In this document: in pieces, positions 1-25,487 of the stretch
How positions within the stretch are numbered: position 1 is the stretch's first letter
Layout: every line of letters begins with the position of its first letter
Assembly (NCBI GenBank): GCA_013239625.1
Contig: MU054974.1
Location: 930,001-994,000, forward strand
Origin: Lama guanicoe
Taxonomy: Eukaryota
DNA length: 64,000 nucleotides
Direction of reading: 5' to 3'
Position numbers and translations under genes: made by a program
Notes under the pieces: model-generated
What the model was told of the DNA's origin: nothing
Databases searched by the model: none
The model's input: only the letters and a program-made list of their open reading frames with translations

Positions 1-947
1 GAGGCCTCGCTGTCTGCCGCCCCACCCGTGAGCCTCCGGCCTTCGTCCCTGTGGGACCTTGCAGCGTGTGCCCCTCCGGCCGGCAGCATGTCTGTGGCCT
101 GCAGAGATCATTCCCGGTTGTCACTGCTGCAGAGCATCCAGGCGTAGGGACGTGCCCGGTGGCGAGGGGTGTTCTGGGAGTTTCCACGTGGGGGCTGCTA
201 GAAGCTGGGTGGCTGTGGTGGCATGGGGTGTGTGCCGAGGACGTGAGCACCCCTCCGGCTGGCATTTCCCCGGGCAGAGCCCAGGCCTGGGTCCGTGGCC
301 CTCCAGCCCTAGAGGCTCCTGCCGCATGGCTCCCGGGACGTCTGCTGTCTCTCCTGATGGGTGGGCTCCTCCTCCTGGTGCACTTGTGCTTCGGAAGTCT
401 CTAGAAGTGACCCTTGAGGTGCTGTGAGCTGTTGCTGAATCCTGCCTGACGTGCTTAAACACACCTGTTGTGGCTCTCCCAGTTCAGATGCTGACATTCA
501 GCTCTTTTTTTAAGGTTGTTTGATAAAGGAGCAGTCTCAAGCATTTAAGTGCAAAAAAATTCAGAACTAAAAACCTGCTTTTAAAACTGATGGATATAAA
601 CTTCAAGTTCAATTTCAAAATTAAAAAATAAGTTTGGCCACTGAACCACACATTTAAAAATGGGTAAAATGGCAAATTTTGTGAACATTTGCCACAATAA
701 AAGTAAGTGAAAAACTAAATTAAGGGCGGGGAGGCACCTCCAGGCAGTGCAGAGTTGCTCGGTTCTTCTGTTTTTCCCAGGCCATTCCGGTCATTCCTCT
801 GCCTCCGTGATGCTCGGCAGCCGAGGCTGGCCGCTCTGGTGACACCGCCCGCGGAGGCGCTGTCGAGCATTCCTGTCGCCAGGCCCCCTCGGTCTGTGTC
901 AGGGCCCTGCAGGTGCCAGGCCGTGACTTCTTTCTCTGAAACTCCAG

Positions 948-1071
948 GGGGATCGGAAGAGTCGGTGTCCTGTGCTCCTGTGGAGGAGAGCAAGTCCGAA
1001 GAGCAGCCGGGAGCTGAGCTCCAGAGGGAGGCGGAGGCCCGCCCCAGGATCCACAGCCGGCGGTTCCGGGA
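948..1071 (+). CDS. SECISBP2: SECISBP2 internal coding exon (SID C-terminal part, ...RPRIHSRRFR-D)
   Basis: Acceptor ttctttctctgaaactccag| (phase 1) and donor GA|gtgagt (phase 2). Peptide KSEEQPGAELQRE...PRIHSRRFRD matches SBP2. The 5' boundary is less certain than the 3'. Confidence 0.85.
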
Positions 1072-1700
1072 GTGAGTGAGCCGGGGCTGTGCCCGCGCGG
1101 GGCCGGGGACACTCACATTGAGCATTCAACTCTCCGCCTGGCGTGCTCAGCGCAGCAAAGCTGCAAGGCTGGGCCCCAGGGCCCAGGGCCTCGTCATAAC
1201 ACGCAGAGAGCTCCCTGACGTCTTGCGACGTCTCTGTCCTAGTGACGTGATGCCAGAGGTGCACTTGGGGAGACGGGTCGTGAGGTGACAGGCCATGAGG
1301 TGACAGCTCCTGACATCTGGTTTCCCTCTTGTGGTTTAATTTCTCTGCATCGTTTTTTAGGGAGCTGTGCCTCCTTCCTTCCCACTTTCCTGCACCGTAG
1401 ACTCCCTGAGGCGTTTGTTTTCACGGGGAGCAGCCGTGGTCAGGGCGCAGCGGGGCTGTGCTGGAGAGCAGGGTGGAGGTCTGTCCTTGTAGTTGGGGGC
1501 GCGGGAGGATGCCTCTATCCTTACCTTCCTTAAAGTCACATTAGCGAGGAGTTCCACCTTTCTGACTAGTGGTGTTGGTCGAAGCGTGGTTTGTTGGGGG
1601 TAGGGGGGCGTGCTGTCACGTCCCTCATCTGAAGAGTGGCGGCAGCCGCGCTGAATGTCACGGCCGACAGAGAGCTGACTGTCTCTGACGCTTCTTCCAG

Positions 1701-1921
1701 TTACTGCAGCCAGGTGCTCAGTAAGGAGGTAGACGCGTGTGTCACGGATCTGCTGAAAGAGCTGGTGCGTTTCCAAGACCGGATGTACCAGAAAGACCCG
1801 GTCAAGGCCAAGGCCAAGCGCCGCCTCGTGCTGGGGCTGCGGGAAGTCCTCAAGCACCTGAAGCTCAAAAAGCTGAAATGCGTCATCATCTCCCCCAACT
1901 GTGAGAAGATCCAGTCGAAAG
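1701..1921 (+). CDS. SECISBP2: SECISBP2 coding exon (start of RNA-binding/L7Ae region)
   Basis: cttcttccag| ... AAAG|gtaagg. Encodes YCSQVLSKEVDACVTDLLKELVRFQDRMYQKDPVKAKAKRRLVLGLREVLKHLKLKKLKCVIISPNCEKIQSK. Confidence 0.97.
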
Positions 1922-2276
1922 GTAAGGGCGCCGCACGTCCCTGGCGGGCCCCGTGCCTGCGCCGCAGCTGGGGTCCGGCCCAGGCTGCGGCAGCACGGTT
2001 TGTTTTGTGTTCTTGTCATGGAGTAATTTGTTCCCAAAGTTCGTATGGTCCCTAAGGGTCTTGCTCTGTGAGGTGGCCGGGCCCCTGTGGTCCCCACGGT
2101 GTGTATTGGGTTGGCCCCTGCGAGCCTCTGGCGGCAGGAAAGGCTGCACGTCCGTCACGGGGCGTGCGGGGTGCCTCCCCGGTGTGCTCTGGAGCTGGGG
2201 AGGGGCGCTTGCACACACCGCACGGGTTTGTGATGGCAGCTGTGGGCTTCCATCCGTTTTATTTTCTACGACTATC

Positions 2277-2394
2277 TTTTTGGTTGGGGGAGGTCATTAG
2301 GTGTATTTGTTTTTTCATGGAGGCCCCGGGGATGGAACCCAGGACCTCGCGCCTGCTGGGCAAGCGCTCTGTCCCTGAGCTACACCCTCCTCCC
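2277..2394 (-). mobile_element. tRNA-derived SINE (camelid Vic-1-like)
   Basis: - strand GGGAGGAGGGTGTAGCTCAG...GGTCCTGGGTTCCATCCCC with Pol III A/B boxes and an A-rich tail. Confidence 0.8.
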
Positions 2395-5129
2395 TTGTGC
2401 ATTCGAAGTTTACTTGCTCGGTCTGTAAGTCATCCGGCCACTCTTGACTGGTGTGGGTTTGTCCAAGCGCTCGCCCTCCCACTGCAGCTGCGGTACTGGC
2501 TCTGTTCCGTGGGGTGTGGTACGCCGGGCGAGGTGATCACCAGACGGATGCCTGTGATGAAGTCTCCCCGTCGACCCTCGCTGGTCTGTTCTATGTCCTT
2601 CTTGGGCCGCGTGGTAGAGAGGTTGGTAGTTGGGAGCAGAACGCCGTCACTCAGACAGCGGTCCTCCGTGTTGTCTGCATGTTCAGAGTCCCTCCCTGGT
2701 GCCAGTCCTCGCGGGGGTGTAGAGTTCAGCTCGGCTGGAGCCCCACCTCCAGGGAGCCAGTCCAGATCCTGGTGCTCAGCGTTTCCGGTTGCTGCTTCCG
2801 GACTCACTGCCAGCCCCGCGGGCTTGTCCTCGTTCTGGTTCAGGGCAGGTCCAGTCCCCGCCCTCGGGACGGAGCCTCGGGGACCTGCCCGTCTGGCTGT
2901 GTCTGGCAGTGTCCCCCCCGTAGTCCTGTGGCAGGCGCTGGGCGTGACGTGGCCCGTCCCTCGGGCTCTCGGCCGGCTGCCCGGGCCTCCCGTGAGGCTG
3001 GGGGTGCATCGGGCCTCCGGCAGCCTGGTCGGCCTCCCCGCCTCCCGTCGGGGTGTGCCGTGTGTTGGTTCCCAGGCCTCGGGCTGGGAGAAGGGGTGCG
3101 GGCAGCGCATCTGGGAGGTGGGGCTTGGCGTCCAGCCTTCCTGATCTGTGGCTTTTCCACCGTTCTTCCCTGTGCTCGGGGTGCTGGGACGCGCTGCAGG
3201 TTGTGTTCTGTGTCCTCCCCCCGACGTGCCGCTGGGAGCGCCTCCCGGACCCGTGCGCGGGGTGCCGGGCCCGCTGGCCTCCTGTGACTCCCTCCTCTTC
3301 CTTCCACCTCTTTTCTTTTGGTCTTGGTTTCAGTAGAGACTTTCCAGCCCTGTCTTTGAAGCTTTCTGTGGAGGTTTTCATCTCTGGGAGCTGTGTGTGT
3401 CGCAGCTGCTGTTGCCTCGGGGGGATTACCTCCCTGAGAACCGCGGTGACGTGAAGCTTCCTTCTCCGCAAACGGCTTCCCTTTCCAGGGAAGACCAGGT
3501 GGTCTCCAGAGGGACCACCATGGTCTCATGGTGGATGTCTCTGTAGATGTCTGGGTCCACCTGTCTGTTAAGAGCCACTGCAGCTGATGGAAACCTGGGG
3601 GTGTGGCTGGCATTTACAGGCCTGGAGCTGCTCTGTGGGGCAGGGGCTCTCAAACCGCAGTGAGCATCAGAGTCACCCAGGAGGCTGGAGAGGACGCGGA
3701 TACAGCGGCCCCCAGCTCTGCGTTCCTGGCAAGTTCTCGGGTGGTGCTGCTGCTCAGGGACCCCAGGCGGCCACCCTCTGCTGTAGGAGGGTGGCGGGGT
3801 CTCCGCCCTGTTGGAAAGCACCCCAAGGGCCAGCTCTCTGCCTCCACATGCCTTGGAGGAGAACCTTGTACCTCCTGCTGGGAGCGTGGGGTCCAGTGTC
3901 GCTCAGGCCTGCTGCCCAGCGCTGGGGTGGCCGCCTGGGTGAAGTGGGCCTGGGCACCAGCTTGCTGCCACCTCATCTGAGCTGCACCCTGAATCTCTGA
4001 GCTCCCTCTGGACTTGTGAAGCTGGCGCTGCCAGCTAGTTGGCAAGCTCTGGGCGCTGAATTCTAGGGTGTAGGCGGCTGGTCCTGGGTGTTTTCCCCCT
4101 GGCCTAGTCAGCTGTGTGCATCTCAGCTTCCAGAAATGTTTTTGCTCTTCTCTCGCATTCTTCTGGGGATTTTCATCCTTGAAAGACACACCAAAAAACG
4201 GGGATGGATGTATTCATCTGACGGTCCGCCCCGTCTTCCCTGTGAGCCCCACTCCTCTCCTCTGACGCTGGGAGCATGCTGATGGCGTCCCGAGGGCGTG
4301 CTAGGGGTTCACAGTACATTGTGTGCTCATTCATCCCTCCGTTGTTTTGCTTTGGGGCACAAGGAACTTGATTATGTGTCTTACGAATGTTCCTTGATAG
4401 CCAGTGGTTTGCGGTCACTTTAGAGGTAGAACGTAGTGTTACAGCCTGGGATTCTGTTAAAATGCTGTATTTGCTCTGAGCAGCATTTTGCCTAATAATT
4501 CTGAACTTAAACTTTAAGTGGCAGTTGTTTCTCTGAGCATTTGCGTGTTTTAGGTTGAGAAGTCGGCACTTAGAAGTGCTCTCAGCTCTCACTGGAGACG
4601 TGGGCTGGGGGTCAGGAAAGCATCGGACGCTTCCAGCATCTTCTCCCAGGCCGTCAAACAGGACACGCCGAATCCTCCCCAAATGAGGTGTGACGCACGT
4701 GTGAAGTGTCGTGTCATCCACCAGGGGAGCTCCTCAGAGACTCGCGCAGCCCGGGTTTTTACCGGGGCTGGCCATGTGGGCGCCCGCTGCCTGGCATGTG
4801 CCGAGATCCCAGACTCACAGAAGGAAAGCATAACCCTCTGTTCGCTCTCGTGTTTTGGGCACAGGAGCCATTCTCATCAGAGGTGGGGGCGGCGCTCCCA
4901 AAGCCCAAGCTCAGGTGCCAGCCAGGGGTCGGCCACACAAGCTGCCCTTCCTAAGGCCAGCAGCTGCCCAGTTGGCCCTGTGGCAGCTCTTCCCTGCGCC
5001 TGCCGGAGTCACGTCTGCAATCATGTCCGGGCTGGGGTGGGTGCCAGGCGTGAGAGACCACGAGGCCGGCGTCTGAGAGGCTCGGTCAGTGTCCCGTGAC
5101 GAGCTGAAAACACCGCACTGTGAGGAACA

Positions 5130-5452
5130 CAGCCTCACCTCCGTCCCCGTCCCCCCGGCGCCCAGCCTCAGCTCCGTCCCCGTCCCCCCGGCGCCCAGCC
5201 TCTCCTCCATCCCCCCCCCCCTGGTGCCCCCCCTCACCTCTGNNNNNNNNNNNNNNNNNNNNNNNNNNNNNNNNNNNCCCCGTCCCCCCGGCGCCCAGCC
5301 TCAGCTCCGTCCCCGTCCCCCCGGCGCCCAGCCTCACCTCCATCCCCGTCCCCCTGGGGCCCAGCCTCACCTCTGTCTCCCCAGCTCCCAGCCTCAGCTC
5401 CGTCCCCGGCGCCCAGCCTCAGCTCCGTCCCCGTCCCCCCGGCGCCCAGCCT
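5130..5452. repeat. 33-bp GC-rich minisatellite spanning an assembly gap (N at 5243-5277)
   Basis: Unit agcctcagctccgtccccgtccccccggcgccc at 5131, 5164 and 5197, with further copies after the gap. Confidence 0.92.
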
Positions 5453-7625
5453 GCCCGGAACTGGGGCTCTTCTTTAACGTCCGTGCCCCTGAGGGGCTCC
5501 CTCAGCACCTTTCACACTCTTTAGGTGGCCCTGGGTGGGGGTGGGCAGGTTTAAGGGAGGTGGGGCCTACGCACGGATCCCCAGTCAAGCCAGCTGGAGT
5601 GAGTTCCTGGTTCCCACCGAGCAGGGGGACGTGCATTTGAGAAGTTACTCTTTTCAGAGAAAATTGGGCAGTCACACGTGACCAGGTGCCAGGTGACAGG
5701 ACACGCTGGGAAGTCTTCCTTCTCATGCGGGCGTCGTGGGTAGTGTGTGCGCAGGGGTCAGCTTGCTGAGGACCTGGGGCGGAGCCACGCTGTGACCCCC
5801 TTCCAGGCACTAGGCTCAAGCAGCTGGCCGTGCTGGGGGTGGGGTTCAGCGCCTAGTACTGTCCCTTGGCGAGTGAGTCCCCCAGATTGTTCCCACGTCC
5901 CGGACGCAACCCCCTTTGTCATATTTTGACGTGTCCTTGATATTCCGTACGTGCGCACGTGTGTGTGTGAGAGTGTGTGTGTGTGAGATCTGGCATCCTG
6001 GGCCCCAGTTGTGCCTTGCTCTTTTTAGCATCACAGTGTGTTTCGGGACGCTCCCTTTCCTCCGGCCACATAGTCTCTTGCTGATGGACACTTAGCTGCC
6101 TTCGGATTTCTGCAGCCGTCAACAAGGACGCCCTTTTGCACGCCGTGGCTTCTTGCCCGTGTGAATGTCTCTGTGGGCGCATTCCCAGAGGAACAGGGCA
6201 CCTGCACCCGTAAGGCTAAGGCGCGTGCCACCTGCCTCCCGGGCCCCCGCCCGCTTTCCTGTGGGGAGACTTGGAGCACAGTCCGCTTGTGTACGGACTT
6301 GGTGTTTTCTCTGAATTGTTGATTCTCTGCCTTGGGAGGTCTGTCTGTTTTGTGTGCATGTACTGTTTTTTATAGTAAGAGTGCTTTGGGTGAGAGTTGA
6401 GTATTTTTCTGGGTTGTCATTTGCTCATTTTTCTTTACACCTGGTTTTGGCCACGCAGAGGCTTGAGGTGTGTGTGCTGGTGTGTTTACTCTTGTTTTCA
6501 TTGCATCCAGGTTTTATGTTATTCCTCGACCTTCTCCACGATTATCCAAGGTTTGTTTTTCCATTGCTCTTTCCTGGGTTTTCCGTGTTTTCATTTTTGT
6601 GTGCTCAGGGAGAATGTGTTTCGGGTGGGGCCTCGTGGGGGCCGCCCCGCTGTCGCTGCTCCGCCGCCTCCGGGGCTTCCAGATGCCCCTGCTGACCCGC
6701 CCTGCTTCCGCGCGTTTGGGTCATTTCCGGGCCCTCCCTTCTGCCACCCTGCGTCCCCTTACCACGTTCTTGTAGTTTTAACGGAGAATTGACATGTGAT
6801 CACCCTGGATCGTCCATCCCGGAGTCGCGGTGCCTTGTGTGTGGACAGTCTAATCACCAGCACGTTGAAGTTGCTCCGTAAATCCCTCAGTTTCTTGGTA
6901 CGGTGGTTGCCACCTGTTGGGACTCTGGCTGCTGTTGGAAGTGGAGCCATCTCTTCTGTTTTCCGTTCTGGCCGGATGACGCCTGCGTGCGTGCAGACTG
7001 GTGTCTGTGTTACTTGTGCGCAGACACCCAGATGTGATTCCTTGTTGGTTCTGTCCCTGCAGCGCTGCTGGGTTTCTGGCTCGGGAGGCCGTCACCCCAC
7101 ACAGAGCCCCTTCACCCCTCTTCCTGCTCGTGGTGTCCCTGTTCCCCAGCTCCGCCCTCCTCCCCAGCCCCACCGCCACCAGCCCCCAGCCAGGGCCTCG
7201 CTGGGAGGTCAGGTGGAGGGCTGGAGACTCTGGGCAGGTGCCCAGTGACCTCTCAGGCTCCAGATTTTCATCTTTCAGCGAGGTGTAGGGTTTCCTGAGG
7301 ATTCAGGAGCTAATCCACGCGAGGTAGATAGACCGCGGCCTGGCACCTAAGTGTTCACTTCCCGCCATAAACAGCACTCGCTGCTGACTCGACATGGACA
7401 CGCTGATTCCACGAGAGGCGTCTCTTTTGGAGAGTTGGCTTCTTCCCCGTGGCCCAGAGCAGTAATGTACTTGCCCTGGAGTTTCCCGGTGGAGCCTGGC
7501 CCGGGACGCTGGCAGAGGAAGGAGGTCGCTGGGAGTGTTGCCGTCTGGCGGGAAGAGCCCTTAGCGACTGCTGCGGCCAGCGTGCTCGTGTGACGCACTC
7601 CTGCCGTGTCTGTTCCCTCGACCAG

Positions 7626-7780
7626 GTGGGCTGGACGACACGCTGCGCAGCATCATCGACCACGCCTGCGAGCAGAACATCCCGTTCGTGTTTGCGCTCA
7701 ACCGCAAAGCGCTGGGGCGCAGCCTGAACAAGGCGGTCCCCGTCAGCGTGGTGGGGATCTTCAGCTACGATGGGGCCCAG
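7626..7780 (+). CDS. SECISBP2: SECISBP2 coding exon (L7Ae core)
   Basis: accag| ... CAG|gtgagg. Encodes GGLDDTLRSIIDHACEQNIPFVFALNRKALGRSLNKAVPVSVVGIFSYDGAQ; phase is continuous with both neighbours. Confidence 0.97.
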
Positions 7781-8050
7781 GTGAGGCGGGGAGGGGGCGC
7801 GGCCTGCCCGCCAGTGCTCGGGGGAGGTGGGGCTTGCCTGCCTTCCTCCGGGGAGGCAGCCCGCGGGCCCCGGGCCGGAGGCAGCCGCCTTGGCGGCCTT
7901 GTTTCCTTAGCAGCACGGGCTTGGGATTCTGAGAGCTCTGGGCTCACGGCAGGCTGGAGGCATCCCTGTGGAGGGCGCCGTCGCCAGCTTGCAGGGGGCC
8001 GTGTCCTCTGTGGTTGGGGGACATCACCTGTGCTCTCGTTTCTGCCCAAG

Positions 8051-8243
8051 GACCAGTTCCACAAGATGGTTGAGCTGACGATGGCGGCCCGGCAGTCGTA
8101 CAAGGCCATGCTGGAGAACGTGCACCGGGAGCTGGCGGCGGCTCCCGGGCCCCAGGCCCCGGCCAGCCCGCCCGTGCAGGGGCCCGGCCTCTCCACGGAG
8201 GACGGGCCCCCAGCCCCCGCCGGCGAAGAGGAGCAACGCTACA
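8051..8243 (+). CDS. SECISBP2: SECISBP2 penultimate coding exon
   Basis: tttctgcccaag| ... TACA|gtgagt. Encodes DQFHKMVELTMAARQSYKAMLENVHRE...EEEQRY. Confidence 0.96.
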
Positions 8244-8589
8244 GTGAGTGCGGGGTGGGGGGCGGCTGAGCGCCCTCTAGGTCTTCGAGCTGCCTCTCAG
8301 GCCCCATTAGGCTGGGTTCAGACTTGGGAGGGCTGGTCAGCGGGTGTCTCAGACAGACCTCGGGTCAGGCAGCACGCGAAGGGGGTGGCCTTGAGGACAG
8401 CTGTGTCCCCCGCGGGCCGTTGTCAAGGCCGCTGTGCGCTGCGGGGACCGATGCTGCTCACAGGGGTCGCAGTGGGGGGCTCGGGGCGGGGTCCTGGCCG
8501 TGACCGGCCTGCTGGGTGCTGCCGGCCTCCCAGGAGGCCTCCCGGCCTGTCCCTGCCTGTCCCTGAGCTGTGTGCTTTCCTGTTCCCAG

Positions 8590-11938: not shown

Positions 11939-11965
11939 TCAGAAGGCGTCCTGGCCGCAGCTTTC
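11939..11965 (-). CDS. SEMA4D: SEMA4D alternative isoform terminal coding exon (ESCGQDAF*)
   Basis: - strand gttgttctttcag|GAA AGC TGC GGC CAG GAC GCC TTC TGA, phase 0. Resembles the recalled human isoform-2 end ESCSKDTL. Confidence 0.85.
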   Translation of the reverse strand, partial: ESCGQDAF

Positions 11966-12280
11966 CTGAAAGAACAACGTGGTCTTTTAGGTCCTGGAGC
12001 ATCAGGCGGGCCCGAGTCCCTGTCCTGTGTGCTCCCCGTGGGGCCTAGGGTCTGAGCTCTGTCTGGGGTTAGGGTGGCCGTGGGGGCATCTTGCCAGAAC
12101 CAGCTGGTCCTGCCTGACTTGGGAAGTCCTGATTCCCCTCCCGGGATTGGCCCTGGGTGGGAGGGGTGCGGGTTTCAGAAAGCAGAAGTGCTCGATGGGC
12201 CTGGGGAGGCACCAGCAGGACGGGCCCCGAGATGGGTGGCCGTCCGGCCAGACCCCGCCCCCCCGGGCCCGGCCACGTAC

Positions 12281-12378
12281 CCACGCCTTCCTCCAGCTCT
12301 GCACCATGCGATCATGCTCCCCGACCACGGCCCTCCAGGCGGCGAGCTCTCTGGTCCACCTCTCTTGGTGGGTCGCCT
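12281..12378 (-). CDS. SEMA4D: SEMA4D alternative isoform exon C (Trp-rich helix)
   Basis: tcttgcag| ... TGG|gtacgt, 98 nt, phase 1 to 0. Encodes EATHQERWTRELAAWRAVVGEHDRMVQSWRKAW. Confidence 0.88.
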
Positions 12379-15229: not shown

Positions 15230-15439
15230 CGTGTCCCGTCACGGCGATGTGCACCCGGGAGGTCTGGCTCCCCGCCGCGGACAGCGCGGAGCAGCGGTAC
15301 TCGGCGCTCTCCCGGACGGCGTCCCGCAGCCAGCTGAGCACGAGGGCCCGGCCGTCGGGCAGTGCGTGGGTCTGCGTGGGGATGCACGCCTCCAGCACAC
15401 GCCCGTTCTTCTCCCAGAGGAAGTGGACGTCCGCGGGAC
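15230..15439 (-). CDS. SEMA4D: SEMA4D alternative isoform exon B (Ig-like domain strands C-G)
   Basis: gtgcccccag| ... CACG|gtgagc, 210 nt, phase 1-1. Encodes GPADVHFLWEKNGRVLEACIPTQTHALPDGRALVLSWLRDAVRESAEYRCSALSAAGSQTSRVHIAVTGH, with Ig WxxNG and YxC motifs. Confidence 0.92.
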
Positions 15440-22051: not shown

Positions 22052-22261
22052 CTGTGGCCTGGCAGAAGAGGTGGAAGGTCCCCAGGGCGTGCACGTGCTG
22101 GGCCTGGTCGCTGAGGAAGGGCGGCAGCAAGGTGACCCGCGGGCGGCTGTCGGGCCCCGCGCCCGAGGCCGGCCAGGGGCTTCGGGGAGAGGAAGGTGAG
22201 TCGGGGCCCAGACAGGACAGGGAAGAGGACCCCGGAGGGGGGAAGGGCAGAGGAGATGAGG
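22052..22261 (-). CDS. SEMA4D: SEMA4D alternative isoform exon A (Pro/Ser linker plus Ig strands A-B)
   Basis: Long polypyrimidine tract ending ctctgtctcgcag| ... ACAG|gtgagc, 210 nt, phase 1-1. Encodes ASSPLPFPPPGSSSLSCLGP...RVTLLPPFLSDQAQHVHALGTFHLFCQAT. Confidence 0.9.
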
Positions 22262-23715: not shown

Positions 23716-24644
23716 TCAGTCCCCGTCCGCGTCCGAGTCGGCGAACTGCAGCTCGCACTTGACGTCGAACGGCTTGTCCCGGCCCGGGAGCTCGTCCATC
23801 CTCTGCGAGTCCTCCCTGTCGGTGGGCACCCTGCTGGCCATGGTGTCCTGCTCCGTCTCGTAGCCGGTGTCCAGGGCCGGCTTGGGCTGCCCTCCGTTCT
23901 GCTGGGAGAAGCTGCCCTGCTCCACCAGCGTCTCCTTCCCGCTCTGCTCGCAGTCGGAGAAGTCCAGCGCGGGCTTCTTCTTCCCGAGGAACACGGCCGA
24001 GCGGAACTTCAGGCACTGCCCGGGCAGGTAGCCCTTGTAGCAGTTGTAGGTCAGGAGGCAGAGGAACAGGACGAAGAAGAGGAGGCAGAGGGACATGAAG
24101 AGGCGGTTGTCACTAGATTTGAGATACATTGTCTTCTCCGAGTGGACCTGGGGGACCGTGTTGATGACGATCTTTGGTTCACAGGACGTGCTGGTGGGCG
24201 CTGCGGGGTGGGACGGGGGGCTGACGGCACTGGGCGTGCTGACCCGCACAGCTGGGGTCTGGGGAGGGGAGCCTTGGGTGGGCCCCAGCGACATTTTGGG
24301 GGTGATCCTGCCACCTTCTGTCCGTGTGGCCGGCGGGGCAGAGGCCGCCGGGGTCCGCGGGACCACCTTGACCTCCAGGACGTGCTTGGCCACCACCTGC
24401 AAGATGGTCTTGTTTCTGACCCTCTCCTCCGACAGGCACTGGTACACCCCACTGTCTCCTTCCGACAGGTCGAAGATGAGCAAGTTCTTCCTGCCCACCA
24501 GGCTGTACTTGGGGCTCTCGACCTTGAGCACGCTGTCCCGGAACTTCCACACCACCCGGGCCAGGTTGGACTTTTGGGAGCACTTGAGTTCTGCTGTGCC
24601 ACCACGCTTGAAAAAATGCTGCCGGTAACTTTCTTTAACTTTAT
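23716..24644 (-). CDS. SEMA4D: SEMA4D canonical terminal exon: Ig domain, stalk, transmembrane helix, cytoplasmic tail
   Basis: gatgttccag| DKVKESYRQHFFKRGGTAELKC...GVYQC...LFMSLCLLFFVLFLCLLTY...DTGYETEQD...FADSDADGD*; 929 nt. Confidence 0.98.
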
Positions 24645-25443: not shown

Positions 25444-25487
25444 CGGGGCAAGCGGATGTGTCCCCGCTCATTTCCTGAATCAGCCCC
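25444..25487 (-). CDS. SEMA4D: SEMA4D coding exon 13 (end of PSI domain; branch point for the two 3' ends)
   Basis: ttttgcag| ... CCGG|gtaagt, 44 nt, (R)[14 protein letters not shown]. Confidence 0.96.

Follow-up and report, generated by a model that had tools for sequence, protein, structure and literature searches.

A predicted C-terminal helix of anchor-free SEMA4D resembles the cholinesterase WAT domain in pattern without detectable homology

The window, the whole 64,000-nucleotide stretch of guanaco DNA that was analysed, carries the SEMA4D gene on its minus strand, and two exons of this gene encode the conserved C-terminal tail of an anchor-free and presumably secreted SEMA4D isoform. 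The tail is predicted to fold as an amphipathic helix, and in its pattern of residues it resembles the WAT domain of cholinesterases, although no homology to that family is detectable. We give an even chance to the reading that it is a valency-setting helix, four copies of which would close round one antiparallel polyproline strand as the WAT helices of cholinesterases do. SEMA4D is a much-studied ligand of the immune and nervous systems whose soluble form is usually credited to shedding; the present form would be made by splicing, kept across vertebrates, and equipped with its own candidate assembly module. In the open-access literature searched, no function is described for the spliced secreted form or its tail, and a WAT-like reading of the tail was not found.

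Exon structure of the anchor-free isoform

Every exon of the camel SEMA4D X2 model P0001 was placed on the window, between 44849 and 11939. The exons for the signal peptide, Sema and PSI domains (44849-25444, minus strand) are common to canonical SEMA4D and the tail isoform, and four alternative exons complete the latter (Table 1). AG acceptors are present at all four and GT donors at the three internal ones, no stop interrupts the reading frame between the last PSI exon and the end of the tail, and P0001 agrees at 190 of the 195 residues; the guanaco tail itself is identical to the tails of the camel models P0001 and P0002. The encoded protein runs, in order, from the signal peptide through Sema, PSI, a disordered Pro/Ser linker and an alternative Ig domain to a 41-residue tail.

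Table 1. Features of the SEMA4D locus that bear on the tail isoform (window coordinates)
Feature	Position	Strand	Details
Last exon common to both isoforms	25444..25487	-	End of PSI domain; joins 22261 in the anchor-free form
Canonical last exon, coding part	23716..24644	-	Ig, stalk, transmembrane helix, cytoplasmic tail; skipped by the anchor-free isoform
Canonical stalk Cys codon	24183-24181	-	
First alternative exon	22052..22261	-	210 nt, phase 1-1; Pro/Ser-rich disordered linker, C569, first strands of the alternative Ig
Second alternative Ig exon	15230..15439	-	210 nt, phase 1-1; second half of the alternative Ig; carries extra Cys C641
Tail exon	12281..12378	-	98 nt; entered in phase 1, left in phase 0; codes for E1-W33 of the Trp/His heptad helix
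W8 codon	12358-12356	-	Tail exon
W15 codon	12337-12335	-	Tail exon
H22 codon	12316-12314	-	Tail exon
W29 codon	12295-12293	-	Tail exon
W33 codon	12283-12281	-	Tail exon
Last exon, coding part	11939..11965	-	27 nt; ESCGQDAF-stop
C36 codon	11959-11957	-	Last exon
AATAAA	10475..10480	-	First one 3' of the isoform stop, ~1.45 kb off; candidate poly(A) signal

The tail isoform is an already annotated SEMA4D product, listed in RefSeq and UniRef as 'isoform X2' and similar. Annotated short isoforms are 729-740 aa long, and longer tail-bearing forms of ~840-900 aa retain the canonical Ig. Three assembly-derived isoform proteins from other mammals (P0096-P0098, 734-735 aa) lie on contigs of 3,110-3,417 bases, and since the gene spans 33 kb, only spliced RNA explains these contigs.

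The loss of the membrane anchor, which the initial annotation had proposed, is borne out across species: a transmembrane-like segment after PSI is absent in 157 of 158 full-length tail-bearing models, a count that excludes 50 further long models judged incomplete. Its statement that the stalk cysteine is missing is correct as far as it goes, but the skip takes the whole canonical last exon, Ig included, rather than that residue alone. The canonical Ig is skipped in 92 of the 158 models and kept in 66. The canonical last exon contains, at 24314-24313 (minus strand), what may be a weak internal donor, at the point where the squirrel and many bird and fish models exit; its use would possibly give a second predicted secreted form with two Ig domains, as in those 66 models.

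Apart from the tail, the isoform has two further non-canonical cysteines, C569 in the linker and C641 in the Ig domain (P0001 numbering). Both are conserved in amniotes, the frog has C641 only, and teleosts have neither (exons 22261-22052 and 15439-15230, minus strand); the two may bond to one another, or may connect chains in the manner of an antibody hinge. The alternative Ig itself was compared with known folds as a candidate antibody-like C1 domain: Foldseek puts C1-set domains level with IL-1/IL-18 receptor domains, and VIA-align places I-set domains first, tied within 1 Z; its best match, MuSK Ig3 (Z 13.2, rmsd 1.6, 91 aligned residues), carries no meaning as a match to MuSK.

Several minor features surround these exons. 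On the plus strand, ~880-8300 holds the 3' exons of a gene that is convergent with SEMA4D, encodes an L7Ae-type domain and is presumably SECISBP2; it ends near the candidate poly(A) signals (10480-9276) for secreted SEMA4D. An intronic frame close upstream of the second Ig exon (16185-15715, minus strand) includes a brief hydrophobic run that resembles a signal peptide; it has no Pfam match and is probably due to chance. Two intronic tRNA-derived SINE-like copies, presumably of the type found in camelids, lie at ~19915-19850 and 19745-19675 (minus strand).

A conserved, predicted amphipathic helix

Translation of the minus-strand exons confirms the 4-3 heptad spacing that had been noted for the tail, with W, W, H, W and C at d and L, V, V and W at a (W8-L12-W15-V19-H22-V26-W29-W33-C36) and no proline. 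Across residues 8-36, a segment chosen post hoc, hydrophobic residues occupy 8 of 9 a/d positions (p 0.0003, 20,000 shuffles) and all five Trp and Cys residues fall on a/d positions (p 0.003, shuffles); for the same post hoc segment, the hydrophobic moment is maximal at 104 degrees, with p 0.011 at the heptad angle. The tail thus has what is expected of a coiled coil, namely a hydrophobic a/d pattern that continues through four or more heptads, and no proline. Two details of the original description need correction. Residues outside the core were said to be mostly charged or small, but V18 and M25, at g positions, are likewise hydrophobic; and the helix was said to end in cysteine, although the cysteine from the micro-exon, which does fall on a core position (d), is followed by five residues, GQDAF. 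The tail is neutral in charge, with 6 K/R vs 7 D/E in 41 residues.

An AF2 monomer of a rodent orthologue, built on a 43-row alignment, has one continuous helix after the Ig, with pLDDT 96-97 in mid-helix and the helix free of the Ig (pTM 0.59). The full-length AF2 model is weak, with a mean pLDDT of 66, and was used for the limits of the helix (696-727, pLDDT 61-74) and the linker (554-591, pLDDT <50) only. The tail exon gave 0 matches at E <= 10 against PDB sequences, no Pfam family covers the tail, an Ig-plus-tail profile gave Ig matches alone among the matches listed (60 of 79), and the first match of the Atlas search is probably the protein's own cluster. Within its own genome the Ig/tail module has no paralogue, the 12 matches being the SEMA4D locus itself and weak Ig matches.

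Conservation of individual tail residues extends over ray-finned fish as well as mammals and includes a lamprey protein. Among mammalian matches, 92 of 114 have the tail exon, and the 47 distinct tails have H22 in 47/47, W29 in 47/47, W33 in 45/47 and C36 in 37/45; W8, E11, L12 and W15 were fixed by the anchoring pattern in this set. A profile search over 1.84 billion representatives extended the matches to snake, bird, frog, sturgeon, teleosts and one lamprey protein. When longer proteins were searched, 118 of the 120 listed were vertebrate models as long as a semaphorin, almost all of them named SEMA4D; leaving out 2 without the Ig anchor gave 116 rows, of which 96 were distinct and 85, mostly non-mammalian, had the tail. 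In these 85, W15 is kept in 84, H22 in 85, W29 in 85, W33 in 82, C36 in 74 and W8 in 35, W8 having been lost in teleosts and frog, and many of the C36 misses coming from gene models that continue past W33 into intron sequence. Of the Trp and Cys positions singled out by the initial annotation, W15, W29, W33 and C36 are thus conserved and W8 is not.

Fused SEMA4D-tail forms are annotated in birds, crocodilians, turtles, lizards, frog and teleosts. The idea that the tail belongs to a separate neighbouring gene was ruled out for bony vertebrates, for which fused SEMA4D models predominate in the searches. The lamprey protein, which also has the module, is unnamed in the database; database names obscure the module elsewhere too (P0116, P0346, P0355 and P0154), with a pangolin model called 'LRIG1', fish models entered as 'Semaphorin-3C' in UniRef, and pieces from lamprey, snake and electric eel listed as 'uncharacterized'. 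The last residues vary: mammalian ends (QDTF, KDTL, EDNF, KDTF, QDAF, RDAL; 11939-11950, minus strand) are faintly KDEL-like and fish ends are not.

This spread bears on the reading that the isoform is a minor transcript, or is mostly retained and degraded, with the tail as a quality-control or retention signal and little secretion. The protein's absence from the open-access literature searched and the faint likeness of mammalian ends such as KDTL, KDTF, QDAF and EDNF to KDEL speak for it. We nonetheless consider it highly improbable, given that single residues are conserved between ray-finned fish and mammals and in the lamprey protein, and given the full isoform encoded on the spliced contigs P0096-P0098, and fish ends (CDGH) that are unlike KDEL.

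The helix could also be a docking site for a co-receptor, a matrix protein, a lipoprotein or a membrane interface, presenting a Trp and Arg/Lys face without any role in valency. Its strong amphipathy fits this, as do its freedom from the Ig in the monomer model and the good conservation in mammals of b and c positions such as G20/E21. We regard docking as unlikely, however, since the most invariant residues follow a strict 7-residue repeat, as expected of a superhelical bundle, and a docking site leaves the terminal cysteine unexplained.

A third reading, which we hold to be possible though not probable, is a self-sufficient parallel coiled coil, from dimer to tetramer, in which C36 disulfides would replace the stalk cysteine and the canonical Ig-Ig contact and the invariant core histidine would perhaps bind metal or sense pH. 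It draws on the unbroken a/d repeat and on C36, which sits at d and is kept in 74 of 85 tails, the misses being mostly intron-reading gene models. Precedent exists as well: according to one study, class 3 semaphorins, as in the case of SEMA3A, and SEMA4D are disulfide-linked by post-Ig cysteines, and the Ig contributes to dimer stability (PMC6695400). The same study describes a monomeric semaphorin ectodomain, so that the premise of the initial annotation, that semaphorins must dimerise, is a rule rather than a law (PMC6695400). Against a self-sufficient bundle, tryptophan at successive d positions together with hydrophobic g positions suits a two-stranded core poorly.

Taken strictly, the Trp-zipper comparison drawn by the initial annotation fails. 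In the engineered Trp-zipper coiled coil, Trp occupies every a and d position. The SEMA4D tail shares with it Trp on heptad core positions, which in the zipper favour higher oligomers, but only 4 of its 9 core positions are Trp, the rest being His, Leu, Val/Met and Cys, and the most invariant core residue is the histidine. What stands of the original idea is a helical module, which the monomer model predicts with high confidence, and, on the modelling described below, a putative role in oligomerisation. Like the class 3 semaphorins described in PMC6695400, the isoform is Sema-PSI-Ig with a C-terminal cysteine capable of linking chains and is predicted to be secreted; unlike them, its tail is not basic, it has a different Ig behind a long disordered linker, and it arises by splicing of a class 4 gene.

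Comparison with the cholinesterase T peptide

The closest likeness is to the cholinesterase T peptide or WAT domain (Pfam PF08674), known from the WAT4-PRAD complex (PDB 1VZJ) and the BChE tetramer (6I2T). As described in the literature, WAT is an autonomous helix with evenly spaced tryptophans and a cysteine near its end, four copies wrap one antiparallel polyproline PRAD, and the cysteine bonds either to that of a neighbour or to two ColQ cysteines (PMC1285061, PMC2212707, PMC8518539, PMC5943944). A further source states that this mode of tetramerisation is found in cholinesterases only (10.1101/431288). Our comparison set comprised the ACHE and BCHE T exons, 54 further AChE proteins and the COLQ PRAD exon.

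Like the T peptide, the SEMA4D tail is a C-terminal amphipathic helix of ~40 residues with aromatic residues at every seventh position and a cysteine near the end. The ACHE and BCHE T exons and the SEMA4D tail exon are all alternative terminal exons entered in phase 1, and the host protein, a secreted dimer in the cholinesterases, is taken to be likewise in the SEMA4D isoform. There are also clear differences. The tail has fewer aromatics, and its invariant triad W15-H22-W29 (84, 85 and 85 of 85) has His for the middle Trp of the cholinesterase WWW, W8 supplying a third Trp in only 35 of 85; its cysteine is sixth from the end and on a separate micro-exon, and it follows Sema, PSI and Ig domains instead of an esterase catalytic domain.

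Membership of the WAT family was rejected, since Pfam, genome and profile-profile searches gave no detectable homology. PF08674 gave 0 matches at E <= 10 to 27 proteins, and across the genome it recovered the ACHE and BCHE exons and not the SEMA4D tail locus. A 27-row tail profile reached a best E of 320 against 19 distinct T peptides, a T-peptide profile run in reverse on the tails reached E 3 (frog) and 18 (lamprey), and hhalign of tail versus T peptides returned a probability of 5%. Ungapped fits to the ACHE and BCHE T peptides were best at heptad-register shifts (-5, +2, +9), and the ungapped score exceeds full shuffles (1/300) but not shuffles that preserve the core (p 0.27; 14/27 tails, 4/19 T peptides). 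Identity of the guanaco tail to T peptides is 3-5 in 36-39, ~10%, and the lamprey tail reaches up to 9/38 against ACHE.

Predicted assembly around a polyproline strand

We modelled the 37-residue product of the ColQ PRAD exon from the same genome together with four tails (residues 690-733), using no alignment. It scored 0.69 (runs 0.71, 0.69 and 0.54), against 0.02 for the best of three controls, in which the swapped-in chain was not a Trp-heptad helix. Contact agreement between runs was at least 64% and partner pLDDT at least 57. Of 78 solved complexes, 51 attain the mark that this score passes, as do 2 of 108 mismatched pairs (39/65 and 2/126 in eukaryotes); peptides and 4:1 complexes fall outside this calibration. 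Because the AChE-ColQ complex has been solved and the same PRAD chain was used here, the pass may be memory on the part of the predictor; as a modelling result, it shows likeness, not binding.

In the model, each tail copy makes contact through 696, 700, 703-704, 707, 710-711, 714, 717-718, 721, 724-725 and 728, all of them a, d or g positions, and the core residues that touch the PRAD coincide with those conserved in 82-85 of 85 tails. W707 (W15) meets P27-29 in the three-proline run, H714 (H22) meets P21-L25 in the middle, and W721 (W29) meets T19-P22 in the five-proline run, so that the PRAD runs antiparallel to the tails, in the layout described for WAT4-PRAD (PMC1285061, PMC2212707), whose four helices are parallel to one another. 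The interface extends to C36 and both cysteines preceding the ColQ PRAD. That the conserved face is exactly the one engaged argues further against a docking site. Tail pLDDT is 73-76 beside the PRAD vs 53-55 beside unrelated partners, a difference that favours a bundle templated by its partner, of the WAT/PRAD type, which the initial annotation did not consider. It speaks weakly, since a partner was present in each case, against a coiled coil that suffices by itself.

The WAT-like reading would then work as follows. In the secretory pathway, two Sema-domain dimers would join into one tetramer as their four predicted tail helices wrap a polyproline strand, with W15, H22 and W29 stacking on its prolines; C36, which the model places beside the two cysteines preceding the ColQ PRAD, would lock neighbours or the partner by disulfide. 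Candidate partners are ColQ, PRiMA or a free polyproline peptide, and the choice among them would set the fate of the tetramer, in the basal lamina, at the membrane or in circulation. Such a tetramer would raise avidity for plexin-B without shedding. If so, the WAT/PRAD module would gain a second, apparently independent user, a partner chain could set the valency of a semaphorin, and ColQ and PRiMA could carry signalling cargo.

A bolder extension, which we consider rather doubtful, would make secreted SEMA4D the first protein outside the cholinesterases to use the PRAD anchors, with ColQ and PRiMA holding semaphorin or hybrid tetramers at neuromuscular junctions and cholinergic membranes. A hybrid tetramer would join a SEMA4D dimer to a cholinesterase dimer, acetylcholinesterase and a plexin-B ligand would be placed by one hook and compete for it, and some phenotypes of ColQ or PRiMA loss would be semaphorin phenotypes.

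The isoform also has a proline-rich stretch of its own. At the start of the first alternative exon (22261-22205, minus strand), 71 of 104 models of tetrapod type have P[LKIM]PFPP or a close variant, as does 1 of 56 of fish type; the motif resembles the end of the ColQ PRAD and, judged by its residues, could be a candidate built-in partner for the tail.
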